DNA of 9,276 nt, from IMG/VR virus record IMGVR_UViG_2737471845_000024, positions 1 through 9,276 of that record; one strand, written 5' to 3'. The position numbers were made by a program, and so were the translations under genes. Under the pieces are notes generated by a model. It saw only the letters and a program-made list of their open reading frames with translations. It was not told the origin of the DNA and did not search any database. The DNA comes from a virus. Lineage: Duplodnaviria > Heunggongvirae > Uroviricota > Caudoviricetes. Shown one piece after another: positions 1 to 9,276 of the stretch; position 1 is the stretch's first letter, and each line of letters begins with the position of its first letter.

Positions 1-120
1 CTGCGCATTATTCAGCTGGAGGCGGTGCAGGAAGAAATGGCTAACGAATTTCGTGATCTGCTTGTTGAGAAATTCAAAGACAGCAAAGTAGAAACCTTTA
101 TTGGTACTTTCACCGCCTGA
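1..120 (+). CDS. 3' end (last 39 codons + TGA) of a gene that starts left of the window; uncharacterized prophage protein
   Basis: Frame 1 is the only frame open from position 1; it translates [39 protein letters not shown] and stops at TGA 118-120. Frames 2 and 3 hit stops early. By synteny with yfdQ-yfdR of E. coli prophage CPS-53 it could be YfdQ-like, but the fragment is too short to verify. Confidence 0.45.
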
Positions 121-132
121 TTTCATTACTGC

Positions 133-154
133 AAATGCCCCTGCGGGGGCATTT
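133..154 (+). other. GC-rich hairpin just downstream of the partial gene (possible weak terminator or RNA structure)
   Basis: aaatgcccc-tgcg-ggggcattt gives a 9-bp perfect stem with a 4-nt loop. The only T-run is the 3 Ts inside the stem, so it is not a canonical intrinsic terminator. Confidence 0.3.
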
Positions 155-248
155 ATGGAAACGTAATTGACTCAATAATCGCCGGATGGTGAGGGCTTCC
201 TTTTACCAGAATTCAGCGCGGTGCAGCGCATATAACGTGGAGAACAAA

Positions 249-773
249 ATGTCATTTATTAAAACTTTTTCCGGGAAACATTTTTATTATGACAGGATAA
301 ATAAAGACAACATCGATATTAACGATATCGCGGTTTCCCTTTCAAATATCTGTCGCTTTGCCGGCCATCTTTCACACTTCTACAGCGTCGCCCAACATGC
401 GGTGCTTTGCAGCCAGCTGGTACCGCAGGAATTTGCTTTTGAAGCGTTAATGCATGATGCAACAGAAGCGTATTGCCAGGACATCCCGGCTCCACTGAAA
501 CGCCTTCTTCCTGACTATAAACGGATGGAAGAAAAAATAGACGCCGTAATCCGTGAGAAATACGGGTTACCCCCGGTTATGAGTACGCCCGTGAAATATG
601 CCGATCTCATCATGCTGGCAACCGAACGCCGCGATCTCGGGCTTGATGATGGCTCTTTCTGGCCCGTACTGGAAGGTATCCCGGCAACAGAGATGTTCAA
701 AGTTATTCCACTGTCGCCAGGCCATACCTATGGGATGTTTATGGAACGCTTTAAAGAGTTAACTGAGTCGTAA
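249..773 (+). CDS. yfdR: HD-domain phosphohydrolase, YfdR-like (cryptic-prophage 5'-deoxynucleotidase family)
   Basis: ORF-track ORF 186..773. I place the start at ATG 249 (GGAG at 239-242, 6-nt spacer) rather than ATG 186, which has no RBS. The translation MSFIKTFSGKHFYYD... carries HD-domain signatures (...GHLSHFYSVAQH..., ...LMHDATEAY...). I recognise it from memory as very close to E. coli prophage protein YfdR. A hand-counted 100-nt sample (351-450) is ~53% GC. Confidence 0.8.
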   Translation: MSFIKTFSGKHFYYDRINKDNIDINDIAVSLSNICRFAGHLSHFYSVAQHAVLCSQLVPQEFAFEALMHDATEAYCQDIPAPLKRLLPDYKRMEEKIDAVIREKYGLPPVMSTPVKYADLIMLATERRDLGLDDGSFWPVLEGIPATEMFKVIPLSPGHTYGMFMERFKELTES

Positions 774-881
774 AAATCAGCACGTACGAATTCAAACTCT
801 GCCATAAAAGAACATATAAGTAATTTATTAACATATAGATATAGGTTATATTACAAATTGAAAAATTATTGGAGAGCAACA

Positions 882-1748
882 ATGAATCAAAATCCATTCT
901 CATTCTATGACTTTCTTGGATATTTAATACCAGGTGGTTTTTTTATCCTATTAATGTATTTCTGTGGTTTGACATTCGATCTAGATATTGTTATTGACTT
1001 AAGTGAATTGCTCAGAGGTCAAAGTCAAATCTTTGGCATTTTGAACTACGCTTCAATAGTTATTATATCTTATATAGCTGGACATTTTATTTCTATCACG
1101 TCAGCATTTTTTATCGAAAAATACATGAATAAAGAATTAGGATATCCTTCCAAATATCTATTTAAAAAATTGATAGATACCTCAGAAAGCATTTGTAGCC
1201 CATCATGCGATGAGAGAAGCGCTGATAAAAAAACAAAAATAAAGAATCGCATAATCAAATGCGTATTATGCCCAATAATACTATGGGATTTTATAACACA
1301 AAAACTATGTTATTCTCAATCTCTACCATTTCATTTAGCTAATACAACATGGTTAATGATCAAAGAAGGTTATGAGAAAAAGTTCATAACAAATCGCCAA
1401 TTATTACAAGATAAAAACGGACTTGATGATGATCTCTTCAGATTGGCATATCATTATGTTTATGAGTTTTCAAAACAACATCAAACAAAAATTCAAAACT
1501 ATGTTGCATTATATGGTTTTTGCAGAAACATATGTTTAATCTTTATAATTTCATTTTGGGTATCAGTTCCAACCTTTATTTATCGATTATGTACTCATAG
1601 TGATTATCTTTATAGTTTACTTTCAATAATGCTTAGCTTTTTCTTCGTCTATGTTTTCTATGTTGGTTTTGTTAAATTTTATAGAAGATATACTTTAGAA
1701 GTATTAATGGCATTTGCTGTACTTCAAAGTAACGACACTATTCGTTAA
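882..1748 (+). CDS. AT-rich predicted 4-TM inner-membrane protein of unknown function (prophage moron)
   Basis: ATG 882 is preceded by GGAG 871-874 (7-nt spacer); the ORF-track start at 858 is a TTG. A hand-counted sample (901-1000) is ~29% GC, against ~53% in the adjacent yfdR-like gene. Two N-terminal hydrophobic helices (FLGYLIPGGFFILLMYFCGLTF; IFGILNYASIVIISYIAGHFISITSAFFI) and two C-terminal ones (LYGFCRNICLIFIISFWVSVPTFIY; LYSLLSIMLSFFFVYVFYVGFV) flank a ~130-aa basic hydrophilic domain with C-x3-C and C-x2-C pairs. No family recognised. Confidence 0.75.
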   Translation: MNQNPFSFYDFLGYLIPGGFFILLMYFCGLTFDLDIVIDLSELLRGQSQIFGILNYASIVIISYIAGHFISITSAFFIEKYMNKELGYPSKYLFKKLIDTSESICSPSCDERSADKKTKIKNRIIKCVLCPIILWDFITQKLCYSQSLPFHLANTTWLMIKEGYEKKFITNRQLLQDKNGLDDDLFRLAYHYVYEFSKQHQTKIQNYVALYGFCRNICLIFIISFWVSVPTFIYRLCTHSDYLYSLLSIMLSFFFVYVFYVGFVKFYRRYTLEVLMAFAVLQSNDTIR

Positions 1749-1789
1749 TAATGTTGCTCCCGTGTGCAGACGGGATAATGGAGAAACGT

Positions 1790-1996
1790 ATGCTGAACCT
1801 CGATTGTGTTCCTATCTCAACTTATTGCAAAGAAACTGGCGAAACTCCTGAAGCAATAAACAAACGTGTACAGCGCGGTGTTTGGCGTGAAGGTGTTCAG
1901 GTTTTAAAGGTTGAAGGCGTTAAGGAGAGGTGGATTGATCTTAGTGAGGTTGCAAAATGGGCCAGACAAAACTGCTCAAACTACCGCGCGGCGTAA
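1790..1996 (+). CDS. small excisionase-like (Xis/recombination directionality factor-type) DNA-binding protein
   Basis: ORF-track ORF 1751..1996. Preferred start is ATG 1790 (GGAG 1780-1783, 6-nt spacer), giving 68 aa: MLNLDCVPISTYCKETGETPEAINKRVQRGVWREGVQVLKVEGVKERW... It is small and basic, sits directly upstream of the integrase gene and overlaps it by 40 nt, as lambda xis-int does. The call rests on context and general resemblance, not on a proven motif. Confidence 0.55.
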   Translation: MLNLDCVPISTYCKETGETPEAINKRVQRGVWREGVQVLKVEGVKERWIDLSEVAKWARQNCSNYRAA

Positions 1997-3129
1997 CAAT
2001 CAGGAAACACCGCCAGGGAGAAACGATCAATATAACTTTCACCTACAAAGGAGTTAGATGTCGTGAGCCGCTTTCCAATCTGGAAGTAACACCAAAGAAC
2101 ATTAAATACGCCGAGCGTACACTCGGCGAAATCCATAATAAGATCGAAAGGGGAACATTCATTTATGCAGAATATTTTCCCCGTTCTGCTCGTTTGAAAA
2201 TTTTTGGTAATGCTGCTGCAGGCAAAACGGTAAAGATGTACCTGGACGAATATCTTGAAATCTGCGAAACAAGAAAACTTTCACCCTCTACGATTGGTGG
2301 CTATAAAAAATGCCGTAGTGCGTTAGCCTCACTTCACATTTGCCCTGCAAGTGAATTAACACCAGCAACCCTGAAAGCGTGGATTCAAAATCAGAAAACG
2401 ACCTTAAAAACAATTCGCAACCAGTTATCTTTCCTGCGGTCAGCACTTGATGAAGCCGTGACCGATGGGGTACTTCAAATTAACCCCGTATCGTTAGTAA
2501 CAGCTTCGCGCTACCAAAGTGATAAGTCAGAAGCAGAAAGCAGCTACGTAGTTGATCCGCTATCACCAGCAGAAGTTGATGCATTACTAGCAGCAGCCGG
2601 AAACAAACAATGGGAAAATCTGTTCCGGTTCGCTATACATACAGGCCTGCGTAGTTCTGAATTATGTGCCCTTCGATGGCGTGATATCGACTTTGTTGGA
2701 AAAACTGCCCATGTCCAGAGCGCAAGTGTTGTCGGTGTTATCAAAGGGACAAAGACAAAAGCAGGTACTCGGAAAGTTGAACTGACAGAAGAGGCAATGT
2801 TGGCGCTGATAAATCAGAAGCCATTTACATTCATGAAGGATACTACTGTCTTTGAAGATCCAAAGACCAATAAGCCTTGGGCAAGTGCTGATGCAATCAG
2901 GAAAAAAGCATGGGTGCCAACATTGCGAAAAGCAGGTATTCGTTACAGAAATCCATATCAAACTAGGCATACATTCGCCACCCGCCATATCAGCCGGGGA
3001 GCAAACCTGTTTTGGCTTGCAGCTCAAATGGGGCATAAAGGGCCGGAAATGTTATTTCGTCATTATGGTTCATATTTAAAGGAATATGACGGTAATACGA
3101 CCAGCAATATCACAAAAAAAGCCACTTAA
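1957..3129 (+). CDS. int: phage tyrosine recombinase / integrase (lambda-type, 390 aa)
   Basis: ATG 1957 with GAGG at 1946-1949. Tyrosine-recombinase catalytic signatures are visible in the translation: ...HTGLRSSELCALRWRDID... (box I Arg) and ...HTFATRHISRGANLFWLAAQMGHKGPEMLFRHYGSY... (H-x-x-R, conserved His, catalytic Tyr). The N-terminus KHRQGETINITFTYKGVRCRE looks like an arm-binding domain. Confidence 0.92.
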   Translation: MGQTKLLKLPRGVTIRKHRQGETINITFTYKGVRCREPLSNLEVTPKNIKYAERTLGEIHNKIERGTFIYAEYFPRSARLKIFGNAAAGKTVKMYLDEYLEICETRKLSPSTIGGYKKCRSALASLHICPASELTPATLKAWIQNQKTTLKTIRNQLSFLRSALDEAVTDGVLQINPVSLVTASRYQSDKSEAESSYVVDPLSPAEVDALLAAAGNKQWENLFRFAIHTGLRSSELCALRWRDIDFVGKTAHVQSASVVGVIKGTKTKAGTRKVELTEEAMLALINQKPFTFMKDTTVFEDPKTNKPWASADAIRKKAWVPTLRKAGIRYRNPYQTRHTFATRHISRGANLFWLAAQMGHKGPEMLFRHYGSYLKEYDGNTTSNITKKAT

Positions 3130-3140
3130 GTGGCTTTATC
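3114..3140. terminator. bidirectional intrinsic terminator between convergent gene ends
   Basis: A-run 3114-3120, then a perfect 20-nt palindrome aaagccacttaagtggcttt (3118-3137) that contains the int stop codon TAA (3127-3129), then T-rich sequence. On the minus strand the hairpin is followed by TTTTTTT. It lies between the int stop (3129) and the stop of the reverse 127-aa gene (3143). Confidence 0.5.
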
Positions 3141-3142
3141 AA

Positions 3143-3526
3143 TTAGGAGGCTCTCGATTTAAGCATTTCCGTACACTTAGCAAAGAGCCTCTCAGTTGTT
3201 AGAATCGCAACTTCAGACTGTTTAGAAGTGACCGATTGATCAAGTCGATAGTCTGCAACAATCCTCTGAGCTTTAAGTTGACTCAGGATAAAACTAATCC
3301 CTTTTAGATATCTAGCTTCATATACTTCACTTCCTCTTGAAGCATCGCCCTGCAAATAATTGATTAGCCCCTGATGACTGTCTTTCGGCCCGTTTACCAT
3401 ACAAGGCAAGACATGATGGTAAGCGCCATAGTAGGATCTTGCTATAGCATTTCGATAGCCGATTTCGTCATTACGTTGATGACAGTCTTTTGCAAAACCG
3501 AGAAAATCTTGACTATTAACCGGCAT
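3143..3526 (-). CDS. 127-aa helical protein, second gene of a two-gene cargo operon; tentatively HEPN-like fold
   Basis: ORF-track ORF 3143..3532 begins at a TTG. The ATG at 3526-3524 is preceded by GGAGGG (6-nt spacer) and overlaps the upstream gene's stop by 11 nt, indicating translational coupling. Translation: MPVNSQDFLGFAKDCHQRNDEIGYRNAIARSYYGAYHHV...LKAQRIVADYRLD... The AIARSYYGAYHH helix (R-x6-H) and a later R-x3-DY segment recall HEPN-family profiles; this is from memory and unverified. Confidence 0.65.
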   Translation of the reverse strand: MPVNSQDFLGFAKDCHQRNDEIGYRNAIARSYYGAYHHVLPCMVNGPKDSHQGLINYLQGDASRGSEVYEARYLKGISFILSQLKAQRIVADYRLDQSVTSKQSEVAILTTERLFAKCTEMLKSRAS

Positions 3527-4331
3527 GTGCAACCCTCCGGGTAATCAGACCTAATTCGGAGATAGCATTCTGCTCAATATGTGTGTCTTTACATTCAAAC
3601 CAAACAGCAAAATCTTTACCGACTAAACAATCGTGCTCAGCCATTGAAAAAGCAAGCTCAATATTCATATCAGCGATTTGTTCAGCATCAGAAGACTTTG
3701 TCATGAATACAATCGCATTCACTTTCTCTTCCGAAATATTATAAAAACGCATTCCCGAAAGATGAACCTTCTGAGAATCCATGACATTGGCTACATTATT
3801 GAAAATAAGTTCATATTCTAAACCAGAAAGATCGGCACGTTGCTTAAAGGATTCGACCTGGGAAACAACTTCATCAAGATTGTTGTCCATTTTTTCAGGC
3901 TCCTTATCTCCGAACAATTTAGAGTATGACTGGAAATACTTCTCCGCCAACGCCATCTTCCCCATAAAGAGGGAGTTTTCATAAGCTTGAAGATAAATAA
4001 ACGGGGATATGAAGCTTTCAGCAAGCTTAATGCTTGTTTCAAAGCTTTTCTTCAACGTACCGTAATCTGACAAGAAAACAAGAAAATTCTTTGCAACAAC
4101 CTCATTATGGCATACCTGCAAGGAACGCTCAAAGAAGCCTATCGCCTCATTCACTTGGCCATGTGCACCATAGACCAACGCTAAAAGATAGTCCTCAGAG
4201 ACAGGATCTCTAAGTGCTTCAATCTCACGTAACATCCTTCTAAAGCTAAAGTCATCAATCCTCACTCCATCTTTGAGGTATTTAGTTAGCCGCGCGCTAA
4301 TAACTGATGCTTTTTTTGCTGGCTGCAACAT
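3516..4331 (-). CDS. 271-aa helical protein with TPR-like N-terminal segment, first gene of the two-gene cargo operon; function unknown
   Basis: ATG 4331 is the only possible start (AAGG 6-7 nt upstream; in-frame stop upstream at 4446-4448 with no alternative start codon). TPR-like stretch ...DYLLALVYGAHGQVNEAIGFFERSL... No nucleotidyltransferase (GS...DxD), P-loop or nuclease motif seen. A hand-counted sample (3601-3700) is ~38% GC. Confidence 0.7.
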   Translation of the reverse strand: MLQPAKKASVISARLTKYLKDGVRIDDFSFRRMLREIEALRDPVSEDYLLALVYGAHGQVNEAIGFFERSLQVCHNEVVAKNFLVFLSDYGTLKKSFETSIKLAESFISPFIYLQAYENSLFMGKMALAEKYFQSYSKLFGDKEPEKMDNNLDEVVSQVESFKQRADLSGLEYELIFNNVANVMDSQKVHLSGMRFYNISEEKVNAIVFMTKSSDAEQIADMNIELAFSMAEHDCLVGKDFAVWFECKDTHIEQNAISELGLITRRVAHAG

Positions 4332-4456
4332 TAAAAACCTTATCTTACAAATAGTTGGTAATGATGTTGAATTATTTTTTGTTCTTTATGGCTAATAAGA
4401 TTACATGAAGGGACAACTTCTGACCACCTTAGAAAACACTCACTTTAGTAACAAGA

Positions 4457-4474
4457 GTCAATAATATTGTTGAC
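4457..4474. promoter_or_regulatory. 18-bp imperfect dyad (16/18) gtcaataatattgttgac, candidate operator in the intergenic region upstream of the reverse operon
   Basis: Its reverse complement is gtcaacaatattattgac, with a perfectly palindromic aatatt centre. It overlaps -35-like hexamers on both strands (TTGACA on plus, TTGACT on minus), but no convincing -10 partner was found. Confidence 0.25.
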
Positions 4475-4525
4475 AAATCACAAAAAAACAAACTTATCCA
4501 AAACAATCTGGTTTATCACAAAGCC

Positions 4526-4548
4526 TCTGTGCATAAATCTGTGCATAA
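4526..4548. repeat. tandem direct repeat tctgtgcataa x2 (12-bp period) in the phage arm next to the att core
   Basis: tctgtgcataa occurs at 4526-4536 and again at 4538-4548. It lies ~220 bp left of the att core in an A/T-tract-rich region and could be integrase arm-type sites or a regulator site. Confidence 0.3.
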
Positions 4549-4757
4549 CATCATTTTTACACACATTTTTTATAAAAATATTTTTTAGCAAAAAATGCTA
4601 TCTATCTCCGAAACTGCAACCACAAACCATTAATTCCAAATGAAACTATTTTAAAATAAATAGTAAGACAGTAACAGGACAGAAAAAGTTCCGCAAAAGA
4701 GCCGCTTGTAAAATCAACAATATTTGGCTATTTAAATTCAATGAATTACATAACTAT

Positions 4758-4789
4758 GGACACGGGTTCAACTCCCGCCAGCTCCACCA
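4758..4789 (+). repeat. partial copy of the tmRNA (ssrA) 3' terminus: attachment-site core at the junction of two integrative elements
   Basis: ggacacgggttcaactcccgccagctccacca has a T-loop (TTCAACT), the acceptor 3' strand and CCA. It matches my recollection of the E. coli ssrA 3' end GGACGCGGGTTCAACTCCCGCCAGCTCCACCA with one mismatch (A at 4762, weakening the T-stem). The ~330 nt upstream are AT-rich and show no tmRNA features such as the tag-reading frame, so this is not a functional gene copy. Confidence 0.7.
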
Positions 4790-4836
4790 AAATTCTCCAT
4801 CGGTGATTACCAGAGTCATCCGATGAAGTCCTAAGA

Positions 4837-4868
4837 GCCCGCACGGCGCAAGCCCTGCGGGCTTTTTT
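4837..4868 (+). terminator. rho-independent terminator downstream of the ssrA-derived core
   Basis: gcccgca-N12-tgcgggc stem (alternative inner stem agccc/gggct) followed by TTTTTT at 4863-4868. Confidence 0.55.
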
Positions 4869-4920
4869 GTGCCCTCAATTTGTCCCGCGAAGTCCGAAGA
4901 AAACTAATTAAATCCGATCC

Positions 4921-4976
4921 TTTTAGGCACCTTGTTAGGCACCTCATAAAGCTTTATTGTTTTTTGAGGTGCCTAA
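4921..4976. promoter_or_regulatory. repeated TTAGGCACC(TCA) motif, two direct copies plus one inverted, just upstream of the IntA-like integrase gene
   Basis: ttaggcacc at 4923-4931 and 4935-4943 (direct); the 12-mer ttaggcacctca at 4935-4946 recurs as its reverse complement tgaggtgcctaa at 4965-4976, separated by an 18-bp AT-rich spacer. All copies lie within 75 bp of the int start codon (4995). Confidence 0.4.
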
Positions 4977-4994
4977 AACTATGGAAACCCGGCA

Positions 4995-6236
4995 ATGGCA
5001 AGACAAACCAAACCTCTATCCGTTAAAGAAATAGAATCAGCCAAACCCAAGGAGGCGGACTACGTTCTCTATGATGGCGATGGCCTTGAGCTACTCATTA
5101 AATCCAGCGGGAGTAAAATCTGGCAGTTTCGCTACATTCGCCCTGTCACCAAGAAACGAGCAAAGAAGAGCATAGGCTCCTACCCGTCAGTTACCCTTGC
5201 CGATGCCAGAAACTACCGTGCAGAGTCCCGCTCACTACTGGCTAAACAGATCGATCCGCAGGAACATCAGCAAGAACAATTGCGCAGTTCGCTGGAAGCC
5301 AAAACCAACACTTTCCAACTCGTAGCTGAACGTTGGTGGAATGTGAAGAAAGCCAGTGTGACAGAGGACTATGCGGAAGATATCTGGCGCTCTCTTGAAA
5401 GAGACGTCTTTCCTGCGATTGGCGACGTTAGCGTTACAGATATTAAAGCTCATACACTGGTTCAGGCCGTACAACCGGTTCAGGCCAGAGGAGCACTGGA
5501 AACTGTTCGTCGCCTGTGCCAACGTATTAATGAGGTCATGATCTATGCCCAGAACACAGGGCTGATTGATGCTGTTCCCAGCGTTAATATCGGTAAAGCC
5601 TTCGAGAAGCCTCAGAAAAAGAACATGCCCAGCATTCGACCGGATCAGCTACCTCAGTTAATGCAGACGATGCGAACAGCCAGCATTAGCCTTTCCACAC
5701 GCTGCCTGTTCATGTGGCAACTTCTTACTATTACCCGCCCTGCCGAAGCGGCTGAAGCTCTCTGGGAAGAGGTAGACATAGAAGCGCGAGAGTGGAAGAT
5801 TCCTGCAGCACGCATGAAAATGAACCGCGACCATACTGTTCCATTGTCAGATGAAGCAATTGCGATACTAGAGATGATGAAGCCGTTAAGTGGAAATCGA
5901 GAATTTATCTTTCCCAGCCGCATCAAGCCAAACCAGCCGATGAACAGTCAGACCGTAAACGCATCGCTAAAACGCGCAGGTTTTGGTGGGGTGCTCGTTT
6001 CACACGGCCTGCGATCTATCGCCAGTACAGCCCTTAATGAGCAGGGATTTCCACCTGATGTTATTGAGGCTGCACTTGCTCATGTGGATAAGAATGAGGT
6101 TCGTCGTGCGTATAACCGTAGTGATTATCTTGAGCAGCGACGGCCTATGATGCAGTGGTGGGCTGATTTTGTGATGGCTGCAGATCACGGTAGTATGATT
6201 GAAGGAGGGATAAAGGCAATGCGGTTAGTTGGATGA
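4995..6236 (+). CDS. intA: P4-family tyrosine integrase, IntA (CP4-57)-like, 413 aa
   Basis: N-terminus MARQTKPLSVKEIESAKPKEADYVLYDGDGLELLIKSSGSKIWQFRY... is the arm-binding domain typical of P4-type integrases. Catalytic signatures: ...TITRPAEAAEALWEEVD... and ...HGLRSIASTAL...ALAHVDKNEVRRAYNRSDY (H-x-x-R, His, Tyr). Length and position directly downstream of the ssrA att core match E. coli CP4-57 IntA as I recall it. RBS is weak (GGAAA). Confidence 0.93.
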   Translation: MARQTKPLSVKEIESAKPKEADYVLYDGDGLELLIKSSGSKIWQFRYIRPVTKKRAKKSIGSYPSVTLADARNYRAESRSLLAKQIDPQEHQQEQLRSSLEAKTNTFQLVAERWWNVKKASVTEDYAEDIWRSLERDVFPAIGDVSVTDIKAHTLVQAVQPVQARGALETVRRLCQRINEVMIYAQNTGLIDAVPSVNIGKAFEKPQKKNMPSIRPDQLPQLMQTMRTASISLSTRCLFMWQLLTITRPAEAAEALWEEVDIEAREWKIPAARMKMNRDHTVPLSDEAIAILEMMKPLSGNREFIFPSRIKPNQPMNSQTVNASLKRAGFGGVLVSHGLRSIASTALNEQGFPPDVIEAALAHVDKNEVRRAYNRSDYLEQRRPMMQWWADFVMAADHGSMIEGGIKAMRLVG

Positions 6237-6316
6237 CATGTCGTAGCTAAAACCCGTTCTGTTTTTGGGTAGATTAACCTGAAGGTCTGCAATTTTAAAT
6301 GACGCTGAAAGAAGTT

Positions 6317-6345
6317 AAACCCTGCTCTTAAGCAGGGTTTTTATG
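6317..6345. terminator. bidirectional intrinsic terminator between intA-like gene and the large reverse ORF
   Basis: aaaccctgct-ctta-agcagggttt is a perfect 10-bp stem with a 4-nt loop, followed by a T-rich tract on the plus strand (tttttatgatttatt). It lies between the convergent stops at 6236 (+) and 6375 (-). Confidence 0.55.
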
Positions 6346-6374
6346 ATTTATTCTAATTTTGGTTTTGAATCTTT

Positions 6375-9276
6375 CTATTTTAAATCAGCCTTTGCGGCTC
6401 GAATATCTGCGTTTTTTGCTGAGTATTCCCATTCGTCAGCGATTCTAAATAGCATTGCAGAAGTACGGACGCAGTGGGGCATTGAATTTGCCCATTCTCG
6501 GTACTGCTCAGCTAATATCCTTTCTTGGTTTCCACCTTCGTAACGCATACGAGCAAATACCCCCCTTTTATTGTACCTACCAATTTGTATACCTTGCTCT
6601 AACTCATCAGAAGATAATATTTCAATGATGTGCCGAATTGCTTCATGTGGCCAGGAATTATCTACTGAGCTATTAGGGGCATGTGCCAGAATTTTTCCTA
6701 TTACATGATCAGTGATTTCTTGGCGATGATGCAATTTTGCTAAATGGCGTACATTCTCACACCAATCTTCAAGTTTATCTTGATCAATTTCATTGTCTAT
6801 CTGCCCTGGTAGTATTCGTAATTTTTCAAGTAATCTGTATATAGAAGTAGCTCTTTTAACTTCCAACTCCGATGGTTCTGTTTGTTCATCTTCGTCACTA
6901 CGATATACAATACATATTGCTTCTATAAAAACCTCTGGCTTTTTCATCATTAGACGATGCAGGATAAGTGGCTCATCGCTATCCGGAAAACAAGGCAAGT
7001 AGGTCATTTCTTTAAATGCCAAATCTGTTTCAGAAACATCGTTACGTTGTTTGAGTTCATCAAAAACTTTTTTTACATAGTACGATAGCATTGTATCAAA
7101 TTGGATATCCTGGCTATTTATTTCTTTAACGACTATATCTAGAAGATATAAAAGTGTTGTAGATGGAATCTCAGAAAGGCGTTGATTTGCTGATATAATA
7201 GCAGCAAGACCCCGGCCCCTTTCTATATATTTATCCATAAGAACAAATAAATCCGAAGTTTTACCCATCATTGCAATGGGTTGTTTTTGCAACCAATATT
7301 TTTCGTTGATGTTATCTTCAAACCCTTCAATAATGCTCCATATCTCTTGTGAGTCTCTTAACGATGCTAAGATTTTCCCAGCCCTATCAGGGGTAATTTT
7401 AAACTGTTTAAAATACACTTTTATTTTATTAAGCCATTCAGCACCAAAGCATTCAACACCATATTGCATTAACAACCCACAAACTTCATCAATATTTTTT
7501 TTGTTGTTAATAAGCATTACAAACAAATCATTTAATTTTTCTTCATCCAACGAGAGTGCTGATATATGCCTTGCTGCAATAAAAACATTATTAACTTGTT
7601 GAAAAAGGTCTTTCACCCCAGACAAACCTAAAGTAAAGTATATTTCCCTAAGTTTTTCACTTCGCATTTCTGCGACAGAAGAAAAAATTCCGCCAGCATT
7701 TTCAATTGACTCTTCAATATCAGAATCCCAATCATTGAAAATCCATAAACTGGCTCTAACCATGTCAATTGGTTTATAATTATCAAGTATTTTCGCTATT
7801 TTTTCCATAGACTCAAATTTAAATGCCCAGTTCGCATCTGAATATTTTTTATGGCGAGAATACTCATGACGCAAAGCCTCCCATACGATGAACTGATCCT
7901 CTTCAGTTTGTTGAGAAAGGCAAAGTTCAAGATGAGAAAGTGTTTCATCTATTGCATTCTCAGGGAATGAGCTTAAATGAGAGATTAGGATTTCCCATCT
8001 TGTTGGGAGTATACCTGCAAGTTTAATTGCTTCTTGGATAATAAAGATTTGCCCCTCCCAAACAACGCCCCACGTTAGTTTTTCTACATCTTTATCCGAC
8101 TCTCTGAACTTCATTTTTTGGTTTTGATCAGAGGTATCATGGGAGCGAGGAAGGAGATTTTGTAACAAACTCCACCCAATACTAGGAACAATAGTGATAA
8201 TTTTTTTTATAATTGCATTTCTAACTTTTACTGGTGCCCATGTATTAGGAGACCATGCCAGAAAAATGGTTCTTAAACTATTAAGAGGGCGATCTGAGTA
8301 AGTTCCTCCGGGATCTATTACAGCGAGTTTTGCAAGACAGATTGCAGCGCGTAATAGATATGTTTGTTCCCAAGCCAAGGCTTCCAATGCCCATTTTAAT
8401 CCATGATAATGACTTCGAGGAGTTAACAGCCCTTTATCTTCATTGAATATTGGAGCAATCATTTCCCCATTGCCCTTAAGCAATTGCTCAAGGGCATCAA
8501 GGAAAGGGCCAGGGGCAGCTTCTGCCAGCAGCGGAAGTTGATCTCGCAAACTAACAAATAGTCGATGGTCGTTAGCAAGTCCCGGAATACTCTGAACTAT
8601 TTTGTTAACAAAATCTTGGGGTGTCATACCAGTAACCCGGAATTCGGCCTGTTCATGTAATATTGCCATATGTAGCAAAACTGTTGTCATTCCATTACGT
8701 AACCACGAGCTATAAGACGTTTTAATACCATTGTCAGGTACAAACAGATCTTCGGCCTTTGGTGGTTCAGGAATATAGGAAAAAACCTCTCTTACGGCCT
8801 TCTCAAAACGCTCCAGGTGTTCTTCACCCAGCAAATAGCCTAAATGTACAAAAGCATCTACCGACGAACGCAATGACCAAATATCATCTACTCGGTCAAT
8901 TGGAGAATCGCGGCGCTTTGTTAATAGCCTTAATGGATTTTCAACTTGAGAATAGTCTGTATAGCCAGCTAGTTGCTTGAGAATTAACTTATCTTTCTCT
9001 GAACATGTACTCCATGCACCAGCTAATAAAGCAGGGAGCAACTCAGGGCTGTCTTTCCATTCAGGTGATTCAGCCGTGCTACTTGATATCTGGCGAGCCA
9101 AAACAGACAAACTTCGGCCACACTGCCGCGCTATTTGATAACTTTTATCTGAATCAAACCCCATAGATTCAAGAGCCTTACCTAAAGATATACTATCTGG
9201 GCGGATCAGAAGTTCGTGATCAGTTCGTGTTTCATCGGCTCCGGCACTTACTACTGTGTGAAGTGGTTTACTGAAT
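6375..9276 (-). CDS. large uncharacterized protein (>966 aa visible, N-terminus beyond right window edge); predicted mostly alpha-helical; candidate cargo/defence protein
   Basis: The reverse-strand frame is open from the window edge to TAG at 6375-6377. The ORF-track start (Met at 9164) is internal: the 37 codons upstream (9165-9275) are open in the same frame (...FSKPLHTVVSAGADETRTDHELLIRPDSISLGKALES-MGFDSD...). No P-loop, helicase, nuclease or methyltransferase signature was recognised by eye. Base composition is heterogeneous (see findings). Confidence 0.88.
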   Translation of the reverse strand, partial: FSKPLHTVVSAGADETRTDHELLIRPDSISLGKALESMGFDSDKSYQIARQCGRSLSVLARQISSSTAESPEWKDSPELLPALLAGAWSTCSEKDKLILKQLAGYTDYSQVENPLRLLTKRRDSPIDRVDDIWSLRSSVDAFVHLGYLLGEEHLERFEKAVREVFSYIPEPPKAEDLFVPDNGIKTSYSSWLRNGMTTVLLHMAILHEQAEFRVTGMTPQDFVNKIVQSIPGLANDHRLFVSLRDQLPLLAEAAPGPFLDALEQLLKGNGEMIAPIFNEDKGLLTPRSHYHGLKWALEALAWEQTYLLRAAICLAKLAVIDPGGTYSDRPLNSLRTIFLAWSPNTWAPVKVRNAIIKKIITIVPSIGWSLLQNLLPRSHDTSDQNQKMKFRESDKDVEKLTWGVVWEGQIFIIQEAIKLAGILPTRWEILISHLSSFPENAIDETLSHLELCLSQQTEEDQFIVWEALRHEYSRHKKYSDANWAFKFESMEKIAKILDNYKPIDMVRASLWIFNDWDSDIEESIENAGGIFSSVAEMRSEKLREIYFTLGLSGVKDLFQQVNNVFIAARHISALSLDEEKLNDLFVMLINNKKNIDEVCGLLMQYGVECFGAEWLNKIKVYFKQFKITPDRAGKILASLRDSQEIWSIIEGFEDNINEKYWLQKQPIAMMGKTSDLFVLMDKYIERGRGLAAIISANQRLSEIPSTTLLYLLDIVVKEINSQDIQFDTMLSYYVKKVFDELKQRNDVSETDLAFKEMTYLPCFPDSDEPLILHRLMMKKPEVFIEAICIVYRSDEDEQTEPSELEVKRATSIYRLLEKLRILPGQIDNEIDQDKLEDWCENVRHLAKLHHRQEITDHVIGKILAHAPNSSVDNSWPHEAIRHIIEILSSDELEQGIQIGRYNKRGVFARMRYEGGNQERILAEQYREWANSMPHCVRTSAMLFRIADEWEYSAKNADIRAAKADLK

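Follow-up and report, generated by a model that had tools for sequence, protein, structure and literature searches.

We analyzed a 9,276-nucleotide stretch of DNA (hereafter the window; positions 1 to 9,276 of the IMG/VR virus record IMGVR_UViG_2737471845_000024) that carries, at positions 882 to 1748, a gene for a 288-amino-acid protein with four predicted transmembrane (TM) helices. The element that hosts this gene is a lambdoid, CPS-53/KpLE1-type prophage of Escherichia coli ATCC 11775 and EC21Z-147. The protein appears to be a remote relative of the CRISPR accessory protein Csx27, and its gene may be a mobile single-gene cassette with which temperate phages exclude or abort other phages. 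The gene and its immediate surroundings are laid out as follows.

249 to 773, plus strand: yfdR-like 5'-deoxynucleotidase gene, the upstream flank and last conserved early-left gene; the cassette boundary lies at its stop codon
774 to 881, plus strand: AT-rich spacer of 108 bp (25.9% GC) that moves with the cassette and carries the GGAG at 871-874
882 to 1748, plus strand: gene for the 288-amino-acid, predicted Csx27-like four-TM inner-membrane protein (WP_001075212.1, PHROG 12528)
1790 to 1996, plus strand: excisionase gene (TorI/xis-like, PHROG 2917), downstream flank
1957 to 3129, plus strand: tyrosine integrase gene (Arm-DNA-bind_2 and Phage_integrase domains), downstream flank

The gene at 882-1748 is a genuine, constrained protein-coding gene: the open reading frame (ORF) is intact, and its ATG start codon lies seven bases downstream of the Shine-Dalgarno sequence GGAG. 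An identical ORF is present in RefSeq as a hypothetical protein, flanked by yfdR and by an xis-like gene with an integrase, and at least 1000 contigs carry the exact 288-residue protein. Comparison with a 78%-identical E. coli variant gave a ratio of nonsynonymous to synonymous substitution rates (dN/dS) of ~0.24, indicating purifying selection on the protein. The GC content of the gene was 28.5% (21.8% at third codon positions), compared with 46.6% for the yfdR-like gene, 46.7% for xis and 44.0% for int. A first reading of the window from its letters alone (the sequence-only reading) had put the gene at ~29% GC and the yfdR-like flank at ~53%; the first figure held, but the second was too high, with the yfdR-like gene reaching at most 51.5% in any 200-bp segment.

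We then compared the slot across E. coli genomes. A 2-kb query through yfdR matched 2969 of 5426 complete genomes, and in all but ~180 of these 2969 the homology stopped at the yfdR stop codon (about position 768 of the window). Small genes of the yfdS/yfdT type, overlapping the stop codon of yfdR, sit between yfdR and the excisionase gene (TorI in K-12) both in K-12 CPS-53 and in EC1515; the 882-1748 gene replaces them in this last early-left slot, directly 5' of xis-int. Because homology ends at the yfdR stop codon and yfdS/yfdT fill the slot elsewhere, the AT-rich gene and its spacer are a cassette that was swapped in. The full-length gene was found in 205 complete genomes (of 431 matching genomes). 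The separate acquisition that the sequence-only reading had proposed is thus evident from the homology break and the alternative slot contents, and its description of the gene as an AT-rich, horizontally acquired insert in an ea-like slot before xis-int was borne out by the RefSeq neighbors and the cassette swap.

The position of the gene raises the question of whether it serves the phage's own lytic or induction program, in which case a delayed-early, ea-like membrane protein made from pL would change host membrane physiology, help DNA exit or entry, or tune lysis timing rather than protect the lysogen. The gene lies on the same strand as yfdP-yfdQ-yfdR and xis-int, in a slot that we take to correspond to the ea8.5/ea22 position on the lambda map, and we found neither a sigma-70 consensus promoter in the spacer at 774-881 nor an intrinsic terminator downstream of the gene. 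The proposal that 882-1748 has its own promoter was dropped on these grounds. We nevertheless consider a role in the lytic program distinctly unlikely, since the gene is dispensable and absent from most yfdR-bearing prophages (205 full-length copies versus yfdR in 2969 genomes), since the cassette is swapped and homologs are common in the chromosomes of many phyla, and since a homolog forms a separate, convergent unit in the lysogenic-conversion hotspot of P2, described below.

The protein is labeled hypothetical in every source. A Pfam scan gave no match, so that the family has no Pfam model; the only match in PHROGs was family 12528, which is annotated as of unknown function; and searching the literature by accession and PHROG identifier found no mention of the protein. 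When a family profile was searched against 1.84 billion cluster representatives (clusters at 50% identity), 945 clusters matched at E≤1e-3 and 203 at E≤1e-30, nearly all of them 265-320 amino acids long and matching end to end. The 80 loci retrieved from GTDB genomes span Gammaproteobacteria, many Bacteroidota, Firmicutes, Chloroflexota, Acidobacteriota and others, and homologs were common in non-phage chromosomal settings across many phyla. At 75 of 75 loci from many phyla, the gene was more AT-rich than its surroundings (median difference -9.3 GC points), which fits a perpetually mobile gene, although an abundance of Phe, Ile, Tyr, Asn and Lys in the protein accounts for part of this AT bias.

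Hydropathy analysis placed four hydrophobic segments at about residues 13-37, 55-78, 213-235 and 243-265, the helices of an AlphaFold model agreed with these segments, and a homolog has been labeled '4 TM' on the basis of Phobius (Rousset et al. 2022). These three lines of evidence agree with the arrangement of two N-terminal and two C-terminal TM helices that had been read from the sequence. The basic, cytoplasmic-looking domain described between them was also recovered, at ~135 amino acids, with 22 Lys/Arg residues and a net charge of +7 in residues 77-215. In family members generally, the median count of Lys/Arg residues in the central domain is 18 and its mean net charge is +5.5, while the two short loops have at most one such residue; by the positive-inside rule, this charge pattern points to an N-in/C-in topology with a cytoplasmic central domain. 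The protein segments map to the gene as follows.

891 to 935, plus strand: N-terminal family signature NPFSxYDFLGYxxPG (amino acids 4-18), predicted to precede TM1 on the cytoplasmic side; alignments to the Csx27, tm_4 and PDC-M48A profiles are in register over this signature
918 to 974, plus strand: TM1, about amino acids 13-31 (hydropathy; AlphaFold helix 8-31)
1044 to 1115, plus strand: TM2, about amino acids 55-78, with invariant Y64, G67 and S74, near-invariant H68, and invariant E79 at its cytoplasmic end
1116 to 1517, plus strand: basic, all-helical, predicted cytoplasmic domain, amino acids 79-212, including YPS at 88-90 and P131
1182 to 1217, plus strand: non-conserved, low-confidence insertion, amino acids 101-112, holding C105-x3-C109
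1431 to 1526, plus strand: conserved juxtamembrane motif D184..R187..YHY..E195..H200..K203.QNYVALYGF.R215, leading into TM3
1518 to 1586, plus strand: TM3, about amino acids 213-235 (hydropathy; AlphaFold)
1608 to 1676, plus strand: TM4, about amino acids 243-265 (hydropathy; AlphaFold)
1668 to 1709, plus strand: conserved, predicted cytoplasmic C-terminal motif F263.KFYRR.TLE273..M276, with K265 invariant

Eight residues (F6, Y14, Y64, G67, S74, E79, R215 and K265) were invariant in 131 family sequences. With an N-in/C-in topology, the conserved polar residues would fall in or beside the cytoplasmic ends of the TM helices, and we infer that they make up one functional site at the cytoplasmic face. 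The AlphaFold2 model, built from the 131-sequence alignment, was all-helical and confident (predicted local distance difference test score, pLDDT, 91.1; predicted template modeling score, pTM, 0.89), its sole low-confidence stretch being residues 101-110 (mean pLDDT 59). Foldseek found no match to the model at E≤0.001 in either the PDB or BFVD, and searching the PDB with the family sequence profile also gave no match. The top Foldseek matches in the PDB, all non-significant, were MotA/PomA/ExbB stator subunits (E≥0.56, template modeling score ≤0.27). The A-subunits of these stators, and ZorA, share with the phage protein an order of two TM helices, a large cytoplasmic domain and two further TM helices, but they have no sequence similarity to it and no B-subunit partner is encoded beside the gene. 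Because of the low template modeling scores, we did not take these matches as evidence of kinship and treated the architecture as coincident.

The sequence-only reading had also pointed to a C-x3-C and a C-x2-C pair as a possible metal site. Both pairs exist (C105-x3-C109 and C127-x2-C130), but the site itself did not stand up to comparison: C105 and C109 fall in alignment columns that are 94-96% gaps, Cys occupies the C127 and C130 columns in 2-3% of 137 family members, and the first pair is deleted in 50%-identical relatives. We therefore rejected a Cys4 metal site, all four cysteines being non-conserved and the insertion that holds the first pair missing from ~95% of relatives. More broadly, a metal-binding membrane protein, a holin or lysis protein, or a housekeeping transporter might be imagined from the cysteine pairs and four TM helices that this protein does have. 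The sequence-only reading had named transporter and holin or lysis homology as findings that would speak against a defensive role, and no match to any transporter, holin or lysis family was found in Pfam, NCBIfam or PHROGs. In the prophage, genes for holin, endolysin and lysis are annotated ~11 kb from 882-1748, the distribution of the gene is patchy, it looks foreign in every genome, and the insertion bearing the first cysteine pair has a pLDDT of only 59. On conservation analysis, these readings appear largely refuted, and we give them hardly any weight.

The profile that did match the 288-residue protein was the PADLOC model of Csx27, an accessory protein of type VI-B1 CRISPR systems (E=1.4e-5, 23.6 bits, residues 6-268 against profile positions 4-188 of 206). 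We scanned 131 diverse family members singly with PADLOC and NCBIfam models. The PADLOC Csx27 model matched 94 of the 131 (best E=2.2e-10), and the independent NCBIfam Csx27 equivalog model, the sole recurrent NCBIfam family, matched 23 (best E=2e-6). Two further PADLOC families matched smaller numbers: tm_4, a second TM family linked to type VI-B systems, matched 30 members (best E 1.6e-6), and PDC-M48A matched 6 (best E 1.9e-4). Like the phage protein, tm_4 and PDC-M48A comprise membrane proteins from defense contexts, PDC-M48A having been proposed as a 'guilt-by-embedding' defense candidate (Payne et al. 2024), and the similarity covers the N-terminal motif and first TM hairpin; the matches are, however, weak and partial (the N-terminal 60-130 residues), and both families are PADLOC candidates of unassigned function.

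Reversed sequences, which keep composition and hydropathy, served as controls: none of five matched at E≤1, whereas their native counterparts matched in four of five cases. For three of these four, the Csx27 alignment began in register at the N-terminal motif, while the fourth placed TM3-TM4 on the first hairpin of the profile. Because native sequences match and reversed controls do not, we consider the similarity to Csx27 specific but remote. Profile similarity extends across the four-TM core, and on this sequence evidence the family is best described as a distant branch of the Csx27-like superfamily, a remote relative and not a Csx27 orthologue. Csx27 and the phage protein are both small, with four predicted TM helices in two hairpins that the profile match spans in full; the Csx27 profiles, at ~206-223 positions, are ~80 residues shorter than the 288-residue protein, which would have a much larger cytoplasmic domain. 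As a side observation, the out-of-register alignment (member P0165, residues 200-277 against profile positions 5-77) raises the possibility that a two-TM unit was duplicated to give the four-TM core.

Csx27 weakens the interference of Cas13b with MS2 about 10^5-fold and acts on different Cas13b orthologues. The phage protein could by analogy be an anti-defense factor that dampens an immune effector of the host or of a competitor, possibly a membrane-associated one, as Csx27 dampens Cas13b. Repression is the only activity shown experimentally in the superfamily, and phages commonly carry inhibitors in early operons. Csx27, however, goes with cas13b and a CRISPR array, while the 288-residue gene is phage-borne in Enterobacteria without them: the window contains neither, its other genes being yfdR, xis, two integrases and hypotheticals, and PADLOC gave no Cas match in the four ORFs scanned. 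Since, in addition, the homology is remote, tested cargo of the P2 hotspot is overwhelmingly defensive, and the family occurs widely in bacterial chromosomes away from phages, we regard an anti-defense function as improbable. For the wider Csx27 family, a role as membrane channels for single-stranded DNA has been proposed. Members of the Csx27-like family are reportedly found beside natural-competence genes, ubiquitin-like systems and WYL regulators, as a 2019 survey by Makarova and colleagues is said to describe; none of these was among the recurrent neighbor Pfam families of the 78 bacterial loci analyzed below.

The family occupies more than one accessory slot of temperate phages. In Enterobacter prophages, a 50%-identical homolog lies in the same slot, directly before xis-int, next to other upstream genes (including one for a ParB-like helix-turn-helix protein) and to an excisionase (DUF4224) and integrase of other families; Klebsiella phage P7641 has the same arrangement as these prophages. 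Among IMG/VR viral loci, 44 of 71 had an integrase within 1.5 kb downstream of the gene, in 39 of these 44 at 200-299 bp, with only xis in between.

In P2-like phages of the P88 type, portal gene Q and replication gene A flank a gene for a full-length homolog of 280 amino acids (tblastn identity 42.5%, range 42-44%). This gpQ-gpA interval is the P2 defense hotspot that holds old and tin, and the 'DUF4760' entry of its cargo table (Table S5B) is curated system #3, the third most abundant cargo with 1102 occurrences, whose second protein is labeled only '4 TM in protein 2' (Rousset et al. 2022). We found that protein 2 of this system is the 42%-identical homolog: the ORF in P2-like phage PV468777 (locus L012) has all of the family motifs, and these are identical to those of the Table S5B sequence. 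The homolog and the DUF4760 protein, which has a single TM helix and the identity of which we confirmed, form their own transcription unit. A later study found that most of the unknown cargo tested from related P4 hotspots was defensive. Within PV468777, the DUF4760 and four-TM genes (positions 5464-6843 of L012) form a separate unit that is convergent with ParM/StbB partition genes, the commonest cargo of the P2 old/tin hotspot, and a 720-bp non-coding stretch upstream of the unit would allow its independent expression.

The gene in the window and P2 system #3 are alike in that the homolog is full-length with the same motifs and both are AT-rich cargo of temperate-phage accessory slots. They differ in that the E. 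coli gene has no DUF4760 partner and sits in the lambdoid early-left/xis-int slot rather than between gpA and gpQ. A tblastn search of the window with the DUF4760 partner gave nothing at E≤1, and the partner was absent from all 1328 ORFs of the 78 bacterial loci.

For these loci, we clustered the ORFs within ±10 kb of the gene and scanned 150 adjacent proteins with Pfam and PADLOC. No neighbor was conserved across the 78 loci, the largest neighbor cluster occurring in 5 of 78, and no Pfam or PADLOC family recurred more than three times among the 150 adjacent proteins. Since there is neither a conserved neighbor nor a DUF4760 partner, the protein would work alone or with universal host components. 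Some loci have defense neighbors, namely type I restriction-modification genes, mad genes and AbiEii-like ATPases, and six of nine large neighbors were of restriction or defense types (Type ISP, an MmeI/BREX-like methylase, SIR2-STAND, HsdR, ResIII and a DUF2726 helicase). The patatin gene that starts 2 nt after the homolog at the Bacteroides locus L098, described below, also belongs with these defense neighbors.

Other loci point to the cell envelope. In Bacteroidales, several homologs are part of capsule biosynthesis loci or stand at their ends: at one (L099), a polysaccharide deacetylase gene and an epimerase gene flank the homolog, all of them sharing one strand and the homolog being 12-114 nt from its neighbors, and at another (L098), it follows a WecG/TagA glycosyltransferase gene at the end of the capsule locus. 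Glycosyltransferase-like neighbor clusters were found at L035, L063, L075, L089 and L094-L096, and the 150 neighbors include three GT2, two GT1 and two WecG proteins as well as epimerases. The protein could thus have an envelope or polysaccharide function in lysogenic conversion, acting on a lipid-linked glycan intermediate or on the assembly machinery at the cytoplasmic face, so that O-antigen or capsule would be altered and phage resistance would arise through receptor modification instead of an intracellular block. The invariant His, Glu, Ser, Lys and Arg residues point to a catalytic activity. O-antigen genes typically have very low GC, and gtr genes are often found in the int-proximal slots of CPS-53/P22-type prophages; if the protein does act on envelope polysaccharides, it would represent a new type of lysogenic-conversion gene. 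We found, however, no glycosyltransferase, acyltransferase, flippase, polymerase or GtrA similarity in Pfam or NCBIfam and no structural match. Polysaccharide loci made up only about 6-10 of the 78, the neighbor counts for polysaccharide, defense and integrase genes being weak lower bounds from single-sequence phmmer seeds. The best-documented contexts are phage accessory and defense hotspots, and the sole recurrent profile matches are to defense-associated TM families. An envelope function is therefore unlikely in our judgment, if less so than the other alternatives.

The capsule-end locus L098 (10001-12875, Bacteroides sp. UMGS1534) has a further feature: the homolog is followed after 2 nt by a gene for a 635-amino-acid patatin-like phospholipase and then by an AEP-like primase gene. 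The homolog and the patatin may form a two-gene membrane-plus-phospholipase module.

Taken together, these data lead us to favor the reading that the 882-1748 gene encodes a phage-carried, single-gene membrane factor, a member of the Csx27-like superfamily, by which other phages are excluded or aborted, a reading to which we assign a probability of roughly 45%. An anti-phage role is the likeliest of the functions considered because the family is found in two independent accessory slots of temperate phages, one being a defense hotspot that experiments have validated, because its only detectable relatives are defense-associated, and because the gene is found in some defense islands. On this reading, temperate phages carry the gene as a mobile accessory ('moron') cassette of one gene, and its product would be an inner-membrane protein with both termini in the cytoplasm, in which a TM1-TM2 hairpin is followed by the ~135-residue basic helical domain and a TM3-TM4 hairpin. 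The putative site at the cytoplasmic face would be assembled from the N-terminal motif, Y64/H68/S74, E79, H191/E195/H200/K203/R215 and K265/R268/E273. Acting alone at the inner membrane in conflicts between phages, the protein may hinder the passage of incoming phage DNA at the cytoplasmic membrane, as SieA, Imm or HK97 gp15 do, or may alternatively confer an infection-triggered membrane conductance, as RexB or Csx28 do. We prefer interference with DNA passage because the protein lacks a sensor partner and conservation of the family extends across phyla. The anti-phage function, the step affected and oligomerisation are all inferred.

The comparison with known exclusion proteins is one of function. 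P22 SieA, T4 Imm, HK97 gp15 and lambda RexB are likewise small, prophage-encoded inner-membrane proteins at accessory positions; no similarity to SieA, SieB, Imm, RexB and the like was found in Pfam, PHROGs or PADLOC (where only Csx27, tm_4 and PDC-M48A matched), or in BFVD or the PDB. RexB has four TM helices and needs RexA, in contrast with the 288-residue protein, which has no partner gene beside it. The distribution of SieA, Imm, gp15 and RexB is narrow, whereas the present family spans many phyla.

Several observations weigh against an anti-phage role. Known exclusion proteins are usually lineage-restricted and fast-evolving, so that a family with invariant polar residues in many phyla fits a conserved biochemical activity better than a typical exclusion protein. 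Many homologs adjoin housekeeping genes such as nrdAB, and several lie in or at the end of the Bacteroidales capsule loci described above. The similarity to Csx27 is remote: the NCBIfam Csx27 model (NF040557) scored the 288-residue protein at 14.9 bits against a cut-off of 65 (E=0.02, residues 5-43 only), and no family member was reported above the 65-bit cut-off (best E=2e-6). Moreover, the sole tested activity of Csx27 is repression of immunity and not defense. The lack of promoter and terminator signals around 882-1748 suggests that the gene may be expressed with the early-left operon after induction and not in the lysogen. Finally, the system #3 pair is catalogued in the P2 hotspot survey, where we found no report of a test of it (Rousset et al. 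2022).

The protein is a prophage accessory membrane protein, and what is already known extends to the extended Csx27 family and the catalogued P2 hotspot cargo. A bolder proposal, which we hold to be doubtful, is that solo Csx27-like proteins of ~280 residues constitute a widespread and unrecognized single-gene membrane immunity system or DNA-entry gate, with a fold unlike solved structures, that lambdoid and P2-like temperate phages spread in the form of exclusion cassettes; if so, the action of the E. coli member at the cytoplasmic face would also explain how Csx27 modulates Cas13b. The family has neither a name nor a Pfam model despite its abundance, its confidently predicted fold is without a structural relative, and the 882-1748 gene offers a handle on the Csx27-like superfamily that is tractable in E. 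coli.

The window holds several further features. Between the end of the yfdQ-like ORF and yfdR, positions 133-153 form a perfect 9-bp stem with a 3-nt loop (AAATGCCCC-TGC-GGGGCATTT) that resembles a terminator or RNA processing site within the early-left operon. Directly after the integrase gene, two minus-strand genes that overlap by 17 nt (3143-3532 and 3516-4331) form an operon for proteins of 129 and 271 amino acids. The 129-residue protein gave a weak HEPN_IX match (PADLOC E=1.4e-3) and belongs to PHROG 5176, and the 271-residue protein gave weak tetratricopeptide repeat (TPR) matches and belongs to PHROG 17809, both PHROGs being annotated as of unknown function; the pair is possibly a toxin-antitoxin or defense pair. 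The operon is bracketed by an imperfect 20-nt direct repeat (17/20) at 3109-3128, in the 3' end of int, and at 4477-4496. ATCC 11775 has different genes at this position, including a STAS-like one, so that it looks like a second variable cargo slot.

Beyond this two-gene module, a 660-bp stretch at 4332-4994 (29-36% GC) has no convincing ORF, and no tRNA gene was found in the window. A second integrase gene, of the P4/CP4-57 type (NCBIfam PRK09692, 931 bits), follows on the plus strand at 4995-6236, and a 929-amino-acid ORF (38% GC) on the minus strand at 6375-9164 gave no match in Pfam, NCBIfam or PADLOC. In EC21Z-147, the second-integrase segment is absent and the prophage is followed by glaH, so that this segment is a separate island in tandem with the prophage.

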